The notes beneath the pieces are model-generated. The model was not told the DNA's origin, did not search any database, and was given only the letters and a program-made list of their open reading frames with translations. Made by a program: the position numbers and the translations under genes. DNA of 32,232 bases from Okeania sp. SIO3I5 (GTDB lineage Bacteria; Cyanobacteriota; Cyanobacteriia; Cyanobacteriales; Microcoleaceae), in assembly GCF_010672085.1 (NCBI RefSeq), contig NZ_JAAHHT010000051.1:934-33165 (forward strand), written 5' to 3'. This document shows positions 1,125 through 32,232 of this stretch, in pieces; position 1 is the first letter of the stretch; every line of letters starts with the position of its first letter.

Positions 1125-4100
1125 ATGTCAATAAAAGTCAGTCTGAATCATCAACTTATTTACAATTTTGACCGCCCTATTATTCTCGGACCGCATCAGT
1201 TAGGATTGCGTCCTTCTCTTCATTGTCCTACTCCGATTCAAAGTTATTCATTAAAAGTTGAACCTCAAGAACATCAAATTACTTGGCAACAAGACGTTTA
1301 TGGTAATTTTATTAGCAAAATTAACTTTCTTCAGAAAACAGATAAACTAAAAATTGAAGTTGACATAATCGCTGAACTTAAACCCATAAATCCCTTTGAT
1401 TTTCTCCTGGAAGCTTATGCAGAGAAATATCCTTTTGTTTATGAAAATTCGCTAAAAAAACAACTAACTCCTTTTTTAGAAATCGCCGAATCAGGAGATT
1501 TACTACAGGAATGGATAAATAAAAATAGACAAATAGACACCTATACTACTAATTTTATCAATTCTATTAATCAACAACTTGCTCAAGATATTAACTATGA
1601 AATTAGACTAGAACCAGGTATTCAAACTTGCGAAGAAACTCTCCACAAAAAAATTGGTTCCTGTCGAGATACAGCTTGGTTATTCGTACAAATTTTGCGT
1701 CATTATGGTTTAGCAGCTCGGTTTGTTTCTGGATATTTAATTCAACTCAAAGAAGATATCCCACCCCTCGATAATTCCCCTACTCCAGAATTTGACAATG
1801 GAGACTTACACGCTTGGGCAGAAGTTTATTTGCCGGGAGCGGGTTGGATAGGTCTAGACCCCACCTCTGGTTTTTTGGCAGCAGAAGGTCATATTCCCCT
1901 GGTCTGTACTCCAGAACCTACAGCAGCAAATCCAGTACAAGGCACGACTGAACCCTGCGAGTCTAACTTAGAATTTTACGTCACGGTCTCTCGGTACGAA
2001 GAAAAACTAAGACCTACTAAACCTTACAGTGAAGAGGAATGGGAAAAAATTAACAACCTTGGTAGGGAAGTTGAGGCAAAACTAAGACGTCTTAGTTTAG
2101 GGTTAACGATGGGAGGAGAACCTACCTTTATTTCTATTGATAATTTTGAATCTCCACAATGGCGAGTGGAAGCTTTGGGAGATGAAAAACGCCGACTTGC
2201 GGGACAGTTGTTAAACCGTCTGGAAAAAAGATTTGCTAAGAATGGAGGATTATTACATTATGGTTTGGGTAAATGGTATCCGGGTGAAGCTTTGCCAAGG
2301 TGGGCACTAGGATGTTATTGGCGTCAAGATGGAGTTCCTATTTGGAGCGATCGCTCTCTCATGGCACAAGACAATAAAGATTATGGTCATGCTCGGAAGG
2401 AAGCAGAAATTTTTATCCAGAGTTTAGCGCAACATCTGGGCGTTAATTCAAGTTGCATCATTCCTGCTTATGAACAGGAAACTGAAACACCTGCGGGTTA
2501 TGTTTTGCCGATTTTGTCAGTCTTGAAAAATGAAAATTTGCACTGGAGTAGTTGTCATTGGCAATTACCCGAAAGTAAATTTCACTTGATCCCTGGGGAC
2601 TCACCCTTGGGGTTTCGTTTGCCACTTAGTTCCATTTCTTGGGCAGAAAATTTGGAACCTGAAGCAACCGTCGATATTAACCACCCCCCCACAACTCCAA
2701 GTCCTACATTCTTAGAAGCTCCTGAAAATTCTATTCGGGTAGCTTTAACCACAGAAGCGCGACTTGGAAAAATACATATATTTATCCCACCCATGACTTC
2801 TGCTAGAAGTTATTTAGATTTAATTGCGACGATTGAAAATACGGCAAAGCAACTAAAAATTCCCGTCATAGTTGAAGGTTACACACCTCCTGGGAATGAG
2901 GGAATAGATGGATTTCAAATTACTCCAGACCCAGGGGTAATAGAAGTAAATATTCATCCCGCAGAAAATTGGCATGAGTTGGTCGAGATTACTACAAGTT
3001 TATATGAAGAGGCGCGTTTGTGTCGGTTGGGAACTGAAAAATATCAGTTAGATGGTCGTCGGATAAGTACCGGTGGGGGAGCGCATATTACTATTGGCGG
3101 TAAGAATCTGTCGGAAAGTCCTCTATTAAGACGACCAGATTTATTGCGGAGTCTAATTACATATTGGCAACATCATCCTAGTTTGTCTTATTTATTTTCT
3201 GGTTTATTTGTCGGTCCGACGAGTCAAGCACCCCGAATAGATGAGGCGCGACATGAAAGTTTGTATGATTTGGAAATTGCTTTTCAGGAGTTACAACCGG
3301 GAAAAGAAGTTGCCCCCGAATTAATAGATCGTTTGTTGAGAAATTTATTGGTGGACGTCACGGGAAATACTCACCGCACCGAATTTTGTATTGATAAATT
3401 ATTTCCAGTGGAAAATCTACGCCGTCGGTTTGGGTTATTGGAGTTTCGAGGATTTGCAATGCCTCCCCACCCTAGAATGAGCTTATTACAAATGTTGTTA
3501 ATTCGGGCTTTGGTGGCGTGGTTTTGGGAACAACCTTATCAACGAGATTTGATTCGCTGGGGGACAATGCTCCACGATCGCTTTTTTCTGCCTCATTATA
3601 TAGGTGAGGATTTTCAAAAAGTAATTAGAGATTTGCAGTCGGCAGGTTTTGGATTTGAATTTGACTGGTTTGCGCCGTTTTTTGAATTTCGTTTTCCGAC
3701 AGTTGGGGAAATAATGCGGGATGGGTTGCAGTTGGAGTTACGTTATGCAATTGAACCTTGGCACGTTTTGGGAGAAGAAACAACTGGTGGAGGAACAGCG
3801 CGTTATGTGGATGATTCGATGGAAAGGTTGCAAGTAATCTTGCGAGGTGCGATGGGAGATTCGCCCAATCAGGATAGTGTAGGTTCGCGGTATTTAGTTT
3901 TGTGTAATGGTCGTCAGGTACCTTTGCACTCTACGGGTGTGACAGGTGAGTATGTAGGGGGGGTAAGGTATAGAGCGCGGAAATATGGGAGTTTATTACA
4001 TCCAGCGATCGAATCTCATAGTCCGTTGCTGTTTGAAATTGTGGATAGTGCAGTAGGGCGAAGTATTGGTGGGTGTAGTTATTATGTGAGTCCTCCCAAT

Positions 4101-4259
4101 GGGAAAGTTTATCGGCAGTTTCCGGTAAATCATCGGGAGGCAGAGTCACGGATGGTAGAGCGGTTTATAGGAATGGGGCATTCTTCTGGAGAGGTTGAGT
4201 TGTCCCCGCTGCGGTTAAGTTCGGAATATCCGTTGACTTTAGATTTGCGGAGGACTTAG
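1125..4259 (+). CDS. Transglutaminase-like cysteine-protease core fused to a large DUF2126-type C-terminal region (1044 aa)
   Basis: Complete ORF. The transglutaminase-core catalytic triad context is visible: 'GSCRDTAWLFVQILRHYGLAARFVSGY' (Cys), 'DLHAWAEVYLPGAGWIGLDPTSG' (His, Asp). The ~800-aa C-terminal extension is typical of DUF2126 transglutaminase-family proteins. Confidence 0.85.
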   Translation: MSIKVSLNHQLIYNFDRPIILGPHQLGLRPSLHCPTPIQSYSLKVEPQEHQITWQQDVYGNFISKINFLQKTDKLKIEVDIIAELKPINPFDFLLEAYAEKYPFVYENSLKKQLTPFLEIAESGDLLQEWINKNRQIDTYTTNFINSINQQLAQDINYEIRLEPGIQTCEETLHKKIGSCRDTAWLFVQILRHYGLAARFVSGYLIQLKEDIPPLDNSPTPEFDNGDLHAWAEVYLPGAGWIGLDPTSGFLAAEGHIPLVCTPEPTAANPVQGTTEPCESNLEFYVTVSRYEEKLRPTKPYSEEEWEKINNLGREVEAKLRRLSLGLTMGGEPTFISIDNFESPQWRVEALGDEKRRLAGQLLNRLEKRFAKNGGLLHYGLGKWYPGEALPRWALGCYWRQDGVPIWSDRSLMAQDNKDYGHARKEAEIFIQSLAQHLGVNSSCIIPAYEQETETPAGYVLPILSVLKNENLHWSSCHWQLPESKFHLIPGDSPLGFRLPLSSISWAENLEPEATVDINHPPTTPSPTFLEAPENSIRVALTTEARLGKIHIFIPPMTSARSYLDLIATIENTAKQLKIPVIVEGYTPPGNEGIDGFQITPDPGVIEVNIHPAENWHELVEITTSLYEEARLCRLGTEKYQLDGRRISTGGGAHITIGGKNLSESPLLRRPDLLRSLITYWQHHPSLSYLFSGLFVGPTSQAPRIDEARHESLYDLEIAFQELQPGKEVAPELIDRLLRNLLVDVTGNTHRTEFCIDKLFPVENLRRRFGLLEFRGFAMPPHPRMSLLQMLLIRALVAWFWEQPYQRDLIRWGTMLHDRFFLPHYIGEDFQKVIRDLQSAGFGFEFDWFAPFFEFRFPTVGEIMRDGLQLELRYAIEPWHVLGEETTGGGTARYVDDSMERLQVILRGAMGDSPNQDSVGSRYLVLCNGRQVPLHSTGVTGEYVGGVRYRARKYGSLLHPAIESHSPLLFEIVDSAVGRSIGGCSYYVSPPNGKVYRQFPVNHREAESRMVERFIGMGHSSGEVELSPLRLSSEYPLTLDLRRT

Positions 4260-4846
4260 AGGTATTATTTTTGATTACATGAGTATATATTATCGGTAAT
4301 ATATACACCACCAGACCAATCATGGTAACTAGGATATGGGTTGTAATCATTGTTTTGGAAATTTTTACATTATTCATAATTCATTGGTTGGTTTGTGTGA
4401 TTTTTAATTCAGATGGTGGTGATTATTCTCAGGACAAACGCATCTAAATTCTGTAAGCTCCTGCTGTTAAGCTTTAGAGAAGTAACGAGTATGAATACTC
4501 AGAAGTCTGACATTCTTCCCCTGTCAGAATTTCAAAATAAGATGCGTTTGCCCTGTGGTTATTCTTTTAATCACCCCACTTAGATTAAATATAAAATGTA
4601 CTATTGTCAAATATCAAGTATAAAATATTATATTATTTCAAGCTTGATATTTTTTGATTTTTATTAATAGCCATTTCCAGAAATTAATATTTTACAGGGG
4701 TTTTATGTGAATCATCAGATATATTTAATTAAAGCAATAATTATGTACTAAGTATTTAATAATACCTTTGCCTAAATGTTTATACTTGAAATGATTAATG
4801 GTATAGGTTCGCCAATATTTTGAAGAAGACAAATAATATAAAATCC

Positions 4847-5029
4847 GGTAGTCCTGCTGAGGAATGGCGAAGATACATAAGTTTTGTAATTTCTTCCCAC
4901 ACCTCCCACACCTCCCACACTTCCCACACCTCCCACACCTCCCACACCTCCCACACGAACCAACTTCCCACACCTCCCACACCTCCCACACCTCCCACAC
5001 TCTCTCTACCATTCCTCAGCACCACCACC
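4847..5029 (+). mobile_element. MITE copy A with imperfect ~21-bp terminal inverted repeats and an internal (TCCCACACC)n 9-mer tandem array, flanked by an 8-bp target-site duplication
   Basis: Terminal inverted repeats are 'GGTAGTCCTGCTGAGGAATGG' (left) and 'CCATTCCTCAGCACCACCACC' (right). 'taaaatcc' flanks the element directly at 4839-4846 and 5030-5037. About 11 TCCCACACC-type 9-mers lie inside. Confidence 0.7.
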
Positions 5030-5169
5030 TAAAATCCGGCTAATTAGTTATCGTATAGCACTTTTGCCGCTACGCGGAATTCAAAATTCAAAATTCATGC
5101 ATTATTGGTTAGTAAGGGTTTTAGGATTTTGTAACTGGTCAGTTATTTCTGCCATCCTGTACTAGGAAG

Positions 5170-5960
5170 ATGAGGTAAAATCCCTATTTTCGAGAGCTTC
5201 GGAAAATGAAAATATGGTAGTCCTGCTGAGGAATGGCGAAGATACATAAGTTTTGTAATTTCTTCCCACACGAACCAACTTCCCACACGAACCAACTTCC
5301 CACACCTCCCACACCTCCCACACCTCCCACACTCTCTCTACCATTCCTGAGCACCACCGCCGAAAATATTTCTCCTATTGCTCTTGGGAAAATTCCTGAA
5401 TATGGAAAAGTTTTTTTTGAACGGTTAATTGGGTTGAATAAAAAGTCATGCGTAGGGGCGAACAACCCCATCTAATCTTTAGAATATCACAAAAGTTGTG
5501 AGGAAGCAACGGGAAATCTTTTGACCCCCCGAAATTTTTGGGAGCTTCAGACAATGAAAATGTTCGTGATTTTTGATTGAGCAGGAAGGGAAAGATTTGA
5601 TGAGGGAACAATCTCTATTTCCGAGAGCTTCAGAAAATGAAAATATTTCTGCTATTGCTCTTGGGAAAATTCTTGGATATTGAAAAGGTTTTGTTGAGCG
5701 GTCAATTTGGTTGAATAAAAAGTCATGCGTAGGGGCGAACGAGCCCATCTAATCTTTAGAATATCACAAAAGTTGTGAGGAAGCAACGGGAAATCTTTTG
5801 ACCCCCCGAAATTTTTGGGAGCTTCAGACAATGAAAATGTTCGTGATTTTTTGATTGAGCAGGAAGGGAAAAATTTGATGAGGGAACAATCTCTATTTCC
5901 GGGAGCTTCAGAAAATGAAAATATTTCTGCTATTGCTCTTGGGAAAAAATTGCTTTCGCT
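5170..5960. repeat. Tandem array of ~276-290-bp units (family 1), about 2.7 copies, with the first copy interrupted by MITE copy B
   Basis: The unit landmark 'ttgaataaaaagtcatgcgtaggggcgaac' recurs at 5433 and 5709. 'gagcttcagaaaatgaaaatatttctgctattgctcttggg' recurs at 5626 and 5900, and a partial copy lies at 5180-5215/5370-5400. Each unit is itself built from two related half-units, both containing 'gagcttcagaMaatgaaaatRtt'. Confidence 0.75.
5216..5361 (+). mobile_element. MITE copy B (same family as 4847..5029), inserted into a unit of the ~280-bp tandem array with an 8-bp target-site duplication GAAAATAT
   Basis: The same terminal inverted repeats are present ('ggtagtcctgctgaggaatgg' ... 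'ccattcctgagcaccaccgcc'). 'gaaaatat' lies at 5208-5215 and 5362-5369. Removing the element and one copy of the duplication regenerates the sequence 'gaaaatgaaaatatttctSctattgctcttggg' seen in the intact paralogous unit at 5636-5670. Confidence 0.8.
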
Positions 5961-6044
5961 TTGTCGCTGCGGACGACTCTTAAACCGGATTCTATATTAA
6001 AATTAATTTTAATATTTTCAAATAGATATGAACAGGAAATAAAT

Positions 6045-7172
6045 ATGTTGAAATCGTTAACTATAAATAATTTTCGTTGCTTCCAATCTTTTGAACTTCA
6101 ACAACTTAGCAGAGTTAATTTATTAGTTGGAATGAATAATAGTGGGAAAACTTCAATTTTAGAAGCAATTCAACTTTTATATTCCTTTCATCAACCAGGC
6201 AAATTTCATAAAATGATATTAGATAGAGGAGAATATTTTACGGAAGGCGATCGCCAACTGGATATTCGTCACCTTTTCTATGGGCGTGAAATTTCATTAG
6301 GAAGCGAATTTTCTATAGTAGGAAATAATGGAAAAGAACAGGAAAAGTTCATTGCTTCAATACAAACAGAGTATCCTAATAATTCCGAGCAAGATATATC
6401 AGATAATTCAGAAGAATTTAGAGATGAGTTAGAATCATCAAAAAAACTTGTTTTTATACTTGATTGGCAGAATCAACCAGTAAAAATAAAACGAAATTTA
6501 TCAGATTATGGAGGTGTATATCTGGGAGACTCAAATTGGGCTATATTGGCGACAAAATTAAATACAAGAGTTGCTAAATCAATTGTAAAATCCCAATTTA
6601 TTGCACCATTGTCTCTGAATATTAGAGAAATTAGTAAACTATTTGATGAAATTGTATTAACACCAGAGGAAAATTTGACTCTAGAAGCACTGCAAATTAT
6701 TGAACCTAAAATTGAACGTATTGCTTCAATTGGTCCTGAAAAATACGATTCTAATAATGAAATTGTAGGAGCAAGAGGTGGATTTAGAGTAAAAGTTTCT
6801 GACCAAAAACAACCCATACCTATTGGCAGTATGGGAGAAGGAATATGGCGAATTTTAGCATTAGCGATCGCTCTGGTTTCTGCTCAAGGTGGAGTATTAC
6901 TTGTAGATGAAATTGATACTGGTTTACATTTTTCTACAATGTCTGATATGTGGAAACTTATTTGGAAAACAGCGAAAAAATTAGATGTTCAAGTATTTGC
7001 TACGACTCATAATAGTGATTGTTGGAGTAGTCTTGCGGATGTGATTAAAAGTGAAGGTTTAGAAAGTGAAGAAATTAAAATTCACAGAATAGAAGCTGAT
7101 AAAAATAGTTCTGTAGTTTTCACAGAACCAGAAATTGTTATTGCTGCAAAACGTGACATAGAGGTGCGATAG
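6045..7172 (+). CDS. AAA_21/AAA_15-type ABC ATPase (AbiLi/AriA/OLD-N-like), the ATPase component of a two-gene module
   Basis: The track ORF runs 5961..7172. I place the start at the in-frame ATG at 6045 (MLKSLTINNF...), which has AGGAAA 6 nt upstream. N-terminal 'LTINNFRCFQSFELQQLSRVNLLVGMNNSGKTSILEAI' is the Walker A region. C-terminal 'GGVLLVDEIDTGLHFSTMSDMWKLIW...VQVFATTHNSDC' carries the Walker B, D-loop and H-loop typical of AAA_21. Confidence 0.8.
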   Translation: MLKSLTINNFRCFQSFELQQLSRVNLLVGMNNSGKTSILEAIQLLYSFHQPGKFHKMILDRGEYFTEGDRQLDIRHLFYGREISLGSEFSIVGNNGKEQEKFIASIQTEYPNNSEQDISDNSEEFRDELESSKKLVFILDWQNQPVKIKRNLSDYGGVYLGDSNWAILATKLNTRVAKSIVKSQFIAPLSLNIREISKLFDEIVLTPEENLTLEALQIIEPKIERIASIGPEKYDSNNEIVGARGGFRVKVSDQKQPIPIGSMGEGIWRILALAIALVSAQGGVLLVDEIDTGLHFSTMSDMWKLIWKTAKKLDVQVFATTHNSDCWSSLADVIKSEGLESEEIKIHRIEADKNSSVVFTEPEIVIAAKRDIEVR

Positions 7173-7175
7173 TAA

Positions 7176-8121
7176 TGGCAAAAAAAGGAAGAAAATTACC
7201 TCCTAAAAATAAGCTCTTGGTAGAGGGTGCTGAGGATAAAAGAGTTATTCCATATTTGATAGAAGCGAATGGAGTTCCTTGGGGTGAAAATAAAGAAGAA
7301 GCTTCAACAATTAATAATTAATAATGAATAATGAATAATTAATAATTACCTCTCCTTGAAAAGAAGAGGATTGACTAATTATGAAAATTTTTATTTATTA
7401 TCCCCTGAAAAGGGGAGGCTTTAAACCAAAATTTTTCGGTAAGCATTCAGCACTCAGCTATCAGCTACATTACCTTTAGTTTACAAGTCAAGGTTATCAT
7501 TATTATGCTTAAATTCTTTGGTTAAAAATGGTAGAAGTTCAACTAAATTATGGCTTCATTCATTTAATGAACCAGAAAATACATGGCAAACTATTAGGAA
7601 TGTTTGTTTGCTTAAAAATTAAGGTTGAAAACCTTTGCTTTCAAGGAGAAAAAACAAAAAAATTATTTTTAACCAATCCTTTTATTAAAAAGAAAAGGTA
7701 ATTATTAATTATTAATTATTAATTGTTAATTATTAATTATTGAATAAGTATTCCTGATTTTCCTGAAAATTTACCAGAAACAGGTCTAATTCATAACACT
7801 AATTCTGGTGTTAAATTTGGAGTGTGGATGATGCCAGATAATAAAATGCGTGGGATGCTAGAAACATTTCTAACTTATATGATTCCTGACGAAAATGAAC
7901 CTATTTGGAATTATGCACAAACAGTTGTTATGGAAGCTAAAAATCAAGGTGCGCCATTTATAGAAAATCATAGTGATAAAGCTAATATTCATACATGGTT
8001 AGCTTGGCAAAATCCTCCTGGTCGTCAATTACATAATGCTGTGATGGAAAAAATATTAAATCCAAAACATCCCCAAGCTCAAATATTTATTAACTGGTTT
8101 AAAAAATTATATGACTTGTAA
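7176..8121 (+). pseudogene. Small partner gene of the ATPase, apparently split by a ~430-bp MITE cluster into an N-terminal fragment (7176..7322, 48 aa) and a C-terminal open frame (7744..8121)
   Basis: The ATG at 7176 lies 4 nt after the ATPase stop, indicating translational coupling. Fragment 1 reads 'MAKKGRKLPPKNKLLVEGAEDKRVIPYLIEANGVPWGENKEEAST*' and carries a TOPRIM/DUF4276-like 'LLVEGxxD' motif. The reading frame then ends in AT-heptamer repeats plus the ACCTCTCC-hairpin elements (7313-7743). A second open frame resumes at 7744 ('...ENLPETGLIHNTNSGVKFGVWMMPDNKMRGMLETFL...KLYDL') with no ATG until late; the annotated track start at 7822 is GTG. No frame-restoring junction was identified, and assignment to DUF4276/AbiLii versus DUF4435/AriB is by gene order only. 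Confidence 0.4.
7313..7743. mobile_element. Cluster of small ACCTCTCC-hairpin MITE-like elements plus AT-heptamer arrays
   Basis: The left end reads 'aattacctctccttgaaaagaagaggattgactaa' and a second hairpin 'cccctgaaaaggggaggctttaaacc' follows. The right end 'ttaaccaatccttttattaaaaagaaaaggtaattatta' is an inverted copy of the left end. Both sides are flanked by (AATTATT)n heptamers. The same termini recur at 19437-19560, 26590-26710, 26870-27060 and 28780-29040. Confidence 0.55.
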
Positions 8122-21439: not shown

Positions 21440-22605
21440 TATATTTATTTTCCTTTCTACAATGTTTGCGCGATCGCCTAGGGATAATAAGAATTTTTGA
21501 GTTGAATAAAAAGTCATGCGTATGGGCGAGCTAACCCATATACCTTTTATGATATCACAAAAATTGTCAGGATGGAGCCGAAAATCCTTTGACGCGCTAA
21601 AATTTTTCAGGAGCTTCAGAAAATGACAATGTTATTGGTTTTCCACTCTACAATATTTGCTCGAATATTTGCGCGATCGCCAATAGGCAATAATCTTTTG
21701 AGTTGAATAAATAGTCATGCGTATAGGCAAGTTACCCCTGATAACTTTTATGATATCACAAAAATTGTGAGGATGGAACCGAAAATCCTTTGACCCGCTG
21801 AAATTTTTTAGGAGCTTCACAAAATGACAATGTTATTGATTTTCCACTGAGCAGCTATAGATGGAAAGATTCGACGATGGGAAAAACAAACATATTATAT
21901 TTATGGGAAGCTCTCACAAAATGAAGATATTTCTGGCATTGCTTTGCCAAAGAAAATTCCTAAATACTTGCATTGTCTATTACCAAAGAAATTTGGTTGA
22001 ATAAATAGTCATGCGTATAGGCAAGTTACCCCTGATAACTTTTATGATATCACAAAAATTGTGAGGATGGAACCGAAAATCCTTTGACCCGCTGAATTTT
22101 TTTAGGAGCTTCACAAAATGACAATGTTATTGGTTTTCCACTGAGCAGAGATAGATGGAAAGATTCGACGATGGGAAAAACAAACATATTATATTTATGG
22201 GAAGCTCTCACAAAATGAAGATATTTCTGGCATTGCTTTGTCAAAGAAAATTCCTAAATACTTGCATTGTCTATTACCAAAGAAATTTGGTTGAATAAAT
22301 AGTCATGCGTATAGGCAAGTTACCCCTGATAACTTTTATGATATCACAAAAATTGTCAGGATGGAGCCGAAAATCCTTTGACCCGCTGAATTTTTTTAGG
22401 AGCTTCACAAAATGACAATGTTATTGGTTTTCCACTGAGCAGAGATAGATGGAAAGATTCGACGATGGGAAAAACAAACATATTATATTTATGGGAAGCT
22501 CTCACAAAATGAAGATATTTCTGGTATTGCTTTGCCAAAGAAAATTCCTAAATACTTGCATTGTCTATTACCAAAGAAATTGGGAAACCAAAACAAGGGA
22601 AGACT
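21440..22605. repeat. Tandem array of ~292-bp units (family 2, related to the 5170-5960 array): one short ~206-bp variant followed by three full units
   Basis: 'ttgaataaaWagtcatgcgtatRggc' recurs at 21500, 21703, 21999 and 22291. Units are more than 95% identical to each other. They are homologous to family 1 throughout (for example 'atatcacaaaaRttgtSagga...aaatcYtttgacc...ggagcttcaSaaaatga'), but diverged at about 30%. Confidence 0.75.
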
Positions 22606-24628: not shown

Positions 24629-24842
24629 AATTAGGGTTTGTTGATTAAATATAAAAGCATTTACAGATAAAGTCTAAAGTCTTTTTAGGTTGAAAAAAGT
24701 GCGTTTGTTTCAATTAAAAACGCTCAAAAAGTTAGCATTTTTGGCAAGATTTTGGAAAAAAATTACTCTTCTGCTCCTTAAAAATACTTTTTCAGCAAAC
24801 CCTAATTATCAATAAAAATACTTTTTCAGCAAACCCTAATTA
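24629..24842 (+). mobile_element. MITE-like element (AATTAGGGTTTG terminal inverted repeat family) with duplicated right terminus
   Basis: The left end 'ctaattagggtttgttgattaaat' is at 24627. The right end 'ctttttcagcaaaccctaattatcaat' occurs twice in tandem (24787-24808 and 24821-24842). Confidence 0.55.
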
Positions 24843-25104
24843 TCAATTATTAATTACCAAAAAATTGTGTAATTAATTTTGCTTATGCACTTATCAACTA
24901 TCAATTATTCATTAAACTGTTAAGCATTTAAGCCGCATATTTGTTCTGTGCGCAGTTAAGAATAAAATCCTTATTAATTCTGTACGGGTGATTCGCAAAT
25001 CATCCCTACTTCCTTCTGATTTCTGACTGGCTAAAACGCATTTTAAATGTGTCTTATATTAGGTTGCATTAATTAACCACAATACAAAAAGACGGTATAG
25101 ATAA

Positions 25105-29062: not shown

Positions 29063-32232
<3,170 letters not shown>

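Follow-up and report, generated by a model that had tools for sequence, protein, structure and literature searches.

IS1 of Escherichia coli is 768 bp long and produces target duplications of 8-9 bp, mostly of 9 bp. Among cyanobacterial elements, Nezha of Anabaena and Nostoc has been linked to ISNpu3-like elements, and filamentous cyanobacteria are reportedly the home of the STRR heptamer repeats and "small dispersed repeats" treated by Mazel in 1990 and Elhai in 2008. A MITE that contains a minisatellite, BrickBuilt, is known from Porphyromonas gingivalis (PMC4596501); a 187-bp MITE of Microcystis matches the ends of ISL3 (PMC11448079), and in a survey of 183,232 prokaryote genomes the highest MITE diversity was found in two Okeania genomes (PMC11602168).

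The stretch of DNA analysed here, which we call the window, comprises 32,232 nucleotides of a MAG of Okeania sp. SIO3I5, a marine filamentous cyanobacterium. Two MITE copies, A and B, lie in a spacer of 1.8 kb that is bounded by a DUF2126/transglutaminase gene (1125-4259) and an ATPase gene (6045-7172), whose product is 100% identical to a protein of that MAG. We put at roughly 0.9 the probability that both are non-autonomous MITEs with cyanobacterial IS1-family terminal inverted repeats, most likely moved in trans by InsAB'. Below we set out the anatomy of the two copies, the dispersed family to which they belong and the insertion sequence that shares its ends, and the tandem array into which one of them was inserted.

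Anatomy of copies A and B

The features of the two copies and of the array around copy B are collected in Table 1. Read directly from the sequence, both copies and their perfect 8-bp duplications have the coordinates and letters given in the original prediction, which had also described imperfect terminal inverted repeats of about 21 bp common to both and a 9-mer array differing in copy number between them. The left terminal inverted repeat is the same 21 bp in both copies, GGTAGTCCTGCTGAGGAATGG, and is matched by the right arm at 18/21 positions in copy A and 16/21 in copy B; at up to three mismatches the window has three occurrences of this 21-mer, where shuffles predict 0.01. The first 56 bp are identical between the copies. 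The nonamer TCCCACACC is present in 11.9 copies in A and 3.9 copies in B, and an interruption common to both copies, GAACCAACT, has in B been turned into a 17-mer, TCCCACACGAACCAACT, that is repeated 2.6 times. Neither copy contains a transposase gene, and the open reading frames that overlap them are the nonamer repeat translated. On the minus strand of both copies, the G-rich nonamer strand, (GGTGTGGGA)n, fits a G3N1-7 quadruplex motif.

Table 1. Coordinates of the two MITE copies, their target-site duplications and the tandem arrays (window positions unless a Dapis locus is named)
Feature	Position	Strand	Remarks
Left target-site duplication, copy A, TAAAATCC	4839-4846	.	Identical to 5030-5037
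MITE copy A, 183 bp	4847-5029	+	Aligns with 14 further nonamer-type copies at other loci
Copy A, left terminal repeat	4847-4867
Copy A, AT-rich spacer
Copy A, nonamer array	4895-5000
Copy A, right terminal repeat	5009-5029
Right target-site duplication, copy A, TAAAATCC	5030-5037	.
Left target-site duplication, copy B, GAAAATAT	5208-5215	.	Identical to 5362-5369
MITE copy B, 146 bp	5216-5361	+
Copy B, left terminal repeat	5216-5236
Copy B, 17-mer and nonamer arrays	5262-5332
Copy B, right terminal repeat	5341-5361
Right target-site duplication, copy B, GAAAATAT	5362-5369	.
277-bp tandem array, target of copy B	5174-5947	+	Partial first unit (split by B), two full units, partial last unit
Orthologous uninterrupted array	Dapis L012 4950-5903		3.5 units, all without the element

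The direct repeat around copy A reaches 10 bp (TAAAATCCGG), with a 2-bp ambiguity in the boundary, because the element begins with GG; the family consensus settles the duplication at 8 bp. Copy A lies 186 bp upstream of copy B in the same orientation, and since their duplications differ, the two copies represent independent events. A composite transposon reaching from A to B was ruled out as well, its outer flanks, TAAAATCC and GAAAATAT, being unlike.

A dispersed family and an IS1-family insertion sequence

A metagenome scan with the left end GGTAGTCCTGCWNAGKAATGG as query gave 63 loci, three of them chance matches in non-cyanobacterial DNA. Dispersed copies are thereby found at about 60 metagenome loci, with two more in Dapis and two in the window. 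The duplications recur at these other copies, as the original prediction implied: among 48 two-ended, MITE-sized elements, the flanks match at 8/8 positions in 28 and at 7/8 in a further 10, with the ninth flank base matching in only 6/40 and 3/40, which is the chance level. The duplicated sequences have an A+T content of 81%, against a background of 64%, and are A-rich in their first half and T-rich in their second. Six or fewer flank bases match in 13 of the 53 rows that represent elements with a detectable right end. Some of these non-matching flanks are explained by recombination or chimeric assembly, as in the pair L014 and L076, which have the left flank and the MITE in common and differ in the right flank.

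The pattern used to scan genomes, GGYRGTSSTGCTSAGGAATGG, was too narrow and misses canonical CATAGTAATGG ends; it gave ten matches, nine of them due to chance, and the sole cyanobacterial one was L008, a 94-bp copy in Dapis sp. BLCC M229 with a perfect 8-bp duplication, GATTTTTG. The other Dapis copy, in the spacer of locus L012, is 155 bp long and lies in the opposite orientation; it is flanked by AATTTTTT, again a perfect duplication of 8 bp, its ends read GGTAGTCCTGCATAGTAATGG and its nonamers have the forms TCCCCAAAC and TCCCCACAC. The MITE end and the array core were both absent from the viral collections that were searched.

The family ends enclose at least two types of interior. In the nonamer type, one 21-bp end is followed by about 24 bp of AT-rich spacer, then by 2-11 nonamers, CTCTCTA and the other end; a second type, of about 125 bp, contains a GGGAGCAAGATGCTCCC hairpin. 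Nonamer copy number varies from 2 to 11 over the family; L015 and L035 represent one insertion site in two samples and have 2 and 3 nonamers, respectively, and array length therefore changes after insertion. The outer right end is asymmetric in nearly all MITE copies, with GGTGGTGG as opposed to GGTAGTCC. The window copies form a subfamily with L008 in which TGCTGAGGAATGG replaces TGCATAGTAATGG, a change found in both arms of the window copies and in the left arm only of L008, which is a hybrid, its left arm being variant and its right arm canonical. The exact subfamily was seen in three copies only, the two in the window and L008.

An autonomous insertion sequence with the canonical ends of the family lies in a MAG of the same genus, that of Okeania sp. 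SIO2F4 (L077, 789-1577). It is 789 bp long, has GGTAGTCCTGCATAGTAATGGT at both ends and is flanked by an 8-bp duplication, GACTATCT. Its InsA frame (frame 0) stops just past an A9 run, where a -1 shift gives a 235-aa fusion protein that contains MDEMW...DDE. Two metagenome loci, L057 and L072, contain an element of 783 bp, both of whose ends are of the left type; the copy in L072 (2086-2868) has an 8-bp duplication, GAATAGTT. Both 783-bp copies are frameshifted pseudogenes. The conceptual product scores 183.6 bits with the NCBIfam model NF033558, "IS1 family transposase" (cut-off 100), 71.1 bits with PF03400 (cut-off 24.1) and 28.8 bits with PF03811 (cut-off 26.1), the Pfam domains matched being DDE_Tnp_IS1 and Zn_ribbon_InsA, and the intact protein closest to it, at 81% identity, is from Okeania sp. 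SIO2F4. With curated models above their cut-offs, a length of about 0.8 kb, an 8-bp duplication and, in L077, a -1 frameshift on an A-run that links the InsA frame to InsB', the elements in L077 and L072 belong to the IS1 family.

A search for a cognate transposase, suggested along with the original prediction, thus ends in an IS1-family element that has the canonical terminal repeat of the family and an 8-bp duplication; IS1-family transposases are also annotated on plasmids of many cyanobacteria. No such IS was found in the 32 kb of Okeania sp. SIO3I5 that were examined. The description of the two copies as a MITE "caught in the act" was overstated, as the insertion is fixed in the MAG consensus and the IS comes from a congeneric MAG.

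The left end of the IS is identical to the canonical MITE end at 21/21 positions and to the window copies at 18/21. The window copies thus differ from the IS end at 3/21 left positions, and they have GGTGGTGG rather than GGTAGTCC at the right end. The likeness of MITE and IS is confined to the ends, internal sequence being different. Since both arms of the window subfamily have an inner terminal repeat of variant form, which could reflect co-evolution with a different transposase, and since the scanned metagenome loci include no IS with exactly the variant ends, we considered that A and B might be real MITEs moved by something other than an IS1 transposase, for example one of the IS1595 family, which also makes 8-bp duplications, or by an IS1 relative that has diverged and has variant ends to match. 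We regard this as very unlikely, given that the canonical end agrees at every position with that of a complete IS1-family element, that the duplications are equal in length, and that the L008 hybrid joins the variant and canonical end types in one element.

We favor a model in which InsAB' of an IS1-family insertion sequence moves the MITE in trans. The transposase would bind the ends of about 21 bp and make staggered cuts 8 bp apart in an AT-rich target, and repair of the gaps would create the 8-bp duplication; these cutting and repair steps are taken from the known behavior of IS1. Copy B was inserted into the first unit of a pre-existing 277-bp array, and copy A at its position upstream. 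The interior is made up of the AT-rich spacer and a (NNCCCACAC)n minisatellite proper to the MITE subfamily, with a copy number that changes after insertion, presumably through replication slippage.

The empty site of copy B and its surroundings

Without copy B and one copy of its duplication, the window reads ...GAGAGCTTCGGAAAATGAAAATATTTCTCCTATTGCTCTTGGGAAAATTC..., which equals units 2 and 3 of the 277-bp array except for point differences. The L012 locus of Dapis sp. BLCC M229 is syntenic, with DUF2126, spacer, array, ATPase and DUF3226 in that order, and all units of its array read GAAAATGAAAATATTTCTG, uninterrupted. Once both MITEs are subtracted, the window spacer is colinear with Dapis through the B site (725 bp, 84.8%). 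Because units 2 and 3 are empty and Dapis is colinear across the B site, copy B is, judged from these sequence comparisons, an insertion that postdates the tandem array. The empty site that the original prediction had reconstructed from the neighboring unit, and the order of events it had drawn from it, are matched in this way by paralogous units and by the orthologous array alike. Around the site of copy A the Dapis intergenic region gave no alignment, and copy A rests on its own duplication.

The refuting case named with the original prediction, that the element belonged from the start to a longer ancestral repeat and has since disappeared from the other units, is effectively refuted and seems to us scarcely credible. 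Slippage between the two copies of an 8-bp duplication could in principle excise an element precisely and leave what looks like an empty site, but nothing in our results points to such a history: units 2 and 3 and all 3.5 Dapis units are without the element, the element recurs at dozens of sites that are unrelated to one another, flanked at each by a separate 8-bp duplication, and copy A stands outside the array. It is just as hard to credit that the copies or their positions are artefacts of short-read MAG assembly, with repeats collapsed or misjoined, for although the window does come from a MAG, and L014 and L076, which share only the MITE and the left flank, may include a chimeric join, both copies have perfect duplications, which a chimeric join at a MITE would destroy, and their flanks run on into sequence colinear with Dapis.

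The unit that received copy B belongs to a conserved sequence of about 280 bp, arranged in tandem in the window both here (277-bp period) and at 21480-22580 (294-bp period) and, in another genome, present only once, upstream of a gene of 52 aa (L079 3930-4200, minus strand). Within it are small hairpins, a -10-like hexamer and a series of very short ORFs (MKMFVIF*, MKIFLLLLLGKF...) whose starts share the form GGAG-N9-ATG; copy B is located in codon 4 of one of these ORFs. Two accounts of the array were tried and rejected. As a known or structured RNA, it has no Rfam match at the gathering threshold or at E<=1, and its consensus fold is weak (-12 kcal/mol, three covarying pairs). As a duplicate of part of the neighboring DUF2126 gene, an idea suggested by analogy with Trichodesmium arrays (PMC4143802), it has no tblastn similarity to that gene. 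A 3' fragment of DUF2126 (aa 828-1017), both duplicated and frameshifted, is present in Dapis at L012 4462-5000 between the MITE and the tandem array; it adjoins the array and is not within it, and Okeania is without the fragment.

Downstream of copies A and B lies a defence-like gene. The ATPase and its DUF3226 neighbor (7176-8121) match the PADLOC candidate anti-phage pair PDC-M38A/B, and the pair also resembles AbiLi. The DUF3226 gene of the window is interrupted by insertions of about 440 bp with heptamer repeats; that of Dapis is intact and encodes 221 aa. In a scan of positions 4260-6100 for promoters and terminators, sites were no commoner than in shuffles, and none lay inside the MITEs. 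Elsewhere in the window, a 926-aa ORF at 13657-16437 matches the eukaryote-type major vault protein (Vault repeats and shoulder domain), whose occurrence in bacteria is unusual, and a nested tandem repeat of 69/231/300 bp at 31265-32232 continues past the window end.

Nonamer arrays elsewhere and comparison with known elements

A reverse-complement nonamer array, which the original prediction had placed inside an unrelated MITE, is real: it is found at 17498-17526, within a different element with ends CCCTAATTAGGGTCTGCTGAA and TTCAGCAGAGCAATAATTAGGG. In 381 kb of cyanobacterial DNA, a sample selected for the IS1-type MITE, 15 of the 20 nonamer arrays of at least three units lie in MITEs of that type, at a fixed position. 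Of the remaining arrays, one is in a probably truncated MITE in L021, and the others belong to different small inverted-repeat elements, those of L015, L062 and L064. Nonamer arrays are present in at least four small inverted-repeat elements besides the IS1-type MITE.

Around the reverse-complement array there is a second MITE-like family, represented by adjacent copies at 17467-17700 and 17700-17940, each of about 235 bp and with ends CCCTAATTAGGGTYTGCTGAA and TTCAGCAGAGCAATAATTAGRG. Where one copy has its three reverse-complement nonamers, the other has heptamer-like repeats, and a related end motif is found in duplicate at 24779-24847. In L015, positions 655-770 hold an element of about 107 bp (GGCGTTGCTGAAGC...GCAACGCC) with its own nonamer array and the 8-bp duplication AATTTTTT, and this element is absent from the orthologous site in another metagenome sample (L035 520-530).

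It had been suggested that such arrays move between element families. Their occurrence in several unrelated small inverted-repeat elements stands; the movement itself is a conjecture. We think it unlikely that the (NNCCCACAC)n array is an independent module that was seeded or copied into the interior of such elements, among them the IS1-type MITE, the element at 17467-17700 and the elements in L015, L062 and L064. If this were so, MITEs would spread a minisatellite through intergenic DNA, and the G-rich strand, which fits a G3N6G3N6G3N6G3 quadruplex motif, could affect transcription or replication beside genes such as the defence-like pair.

The analysis leaves the understanding of transposition unchanged. 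What it provides is a fully documented MITE family for Okeania, Dapis and their relatives, a group whose MITEs are already known to be extremely diverse, with its ends, duplication length, target preference, partner IS and direct evidence of insertion. For annotation, the family accounts for spurious ORFs and broken repeats, and it is a possible strain marker, since presence or absence and nonamer copy number both vary.

Measured against the IS1 family, the partner IS is alike in its length of 789 bp and its terminal repeats of about 22 bp that start with GGT, and equally in its InsA zinc-finger/HTH frame, the -1 frameshift on an A-run that gives InsAB', the 8-bp duplication and AT-rich targets. 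In contrast to IS1 of E. coli, the duplication is consistently 8 bp in the Okeania/Dapis family, and whereas the partner IS is symmetric at its ends, nearly all of the MITE copies are asymmetric at the outer right end. Like the STRR and small dispersed repeats, the nonamers are short tandem oligonucleotides in intergenic DNA, of a kind often nested in hairpin or MITE-like elements. Heptamer arrays proper are abundant in the window, and a long one (TCAGGAG, about 28 copies) occupies 29837-30107. The tandem unit of the MITEs (NNCCCACAC), however, is 9 nt and not 7 nt long, and the label "STRR array" used in the original prediction holds only as an analogy. With Nezha, the Microcystis MITEs and the MITEs of the prokaryote census, copies A and B have in common their shortness, inverted-repeat ends, target duplications and mostly intergenic positions. 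BrickBuilt is alike in being small and intergenic and in having inverted-repeat ends and an internal tandem repeat of varying copy number; it differs in its 23-nt unit and its host, a member of the Bacteroidota, as against a 9-nt unit, a cyanobacterial host and an identified partner IS family in the present case. An IS1-derived MITE that encloses a minisatellite adds a clean case to a type of element already known and is not a new type.
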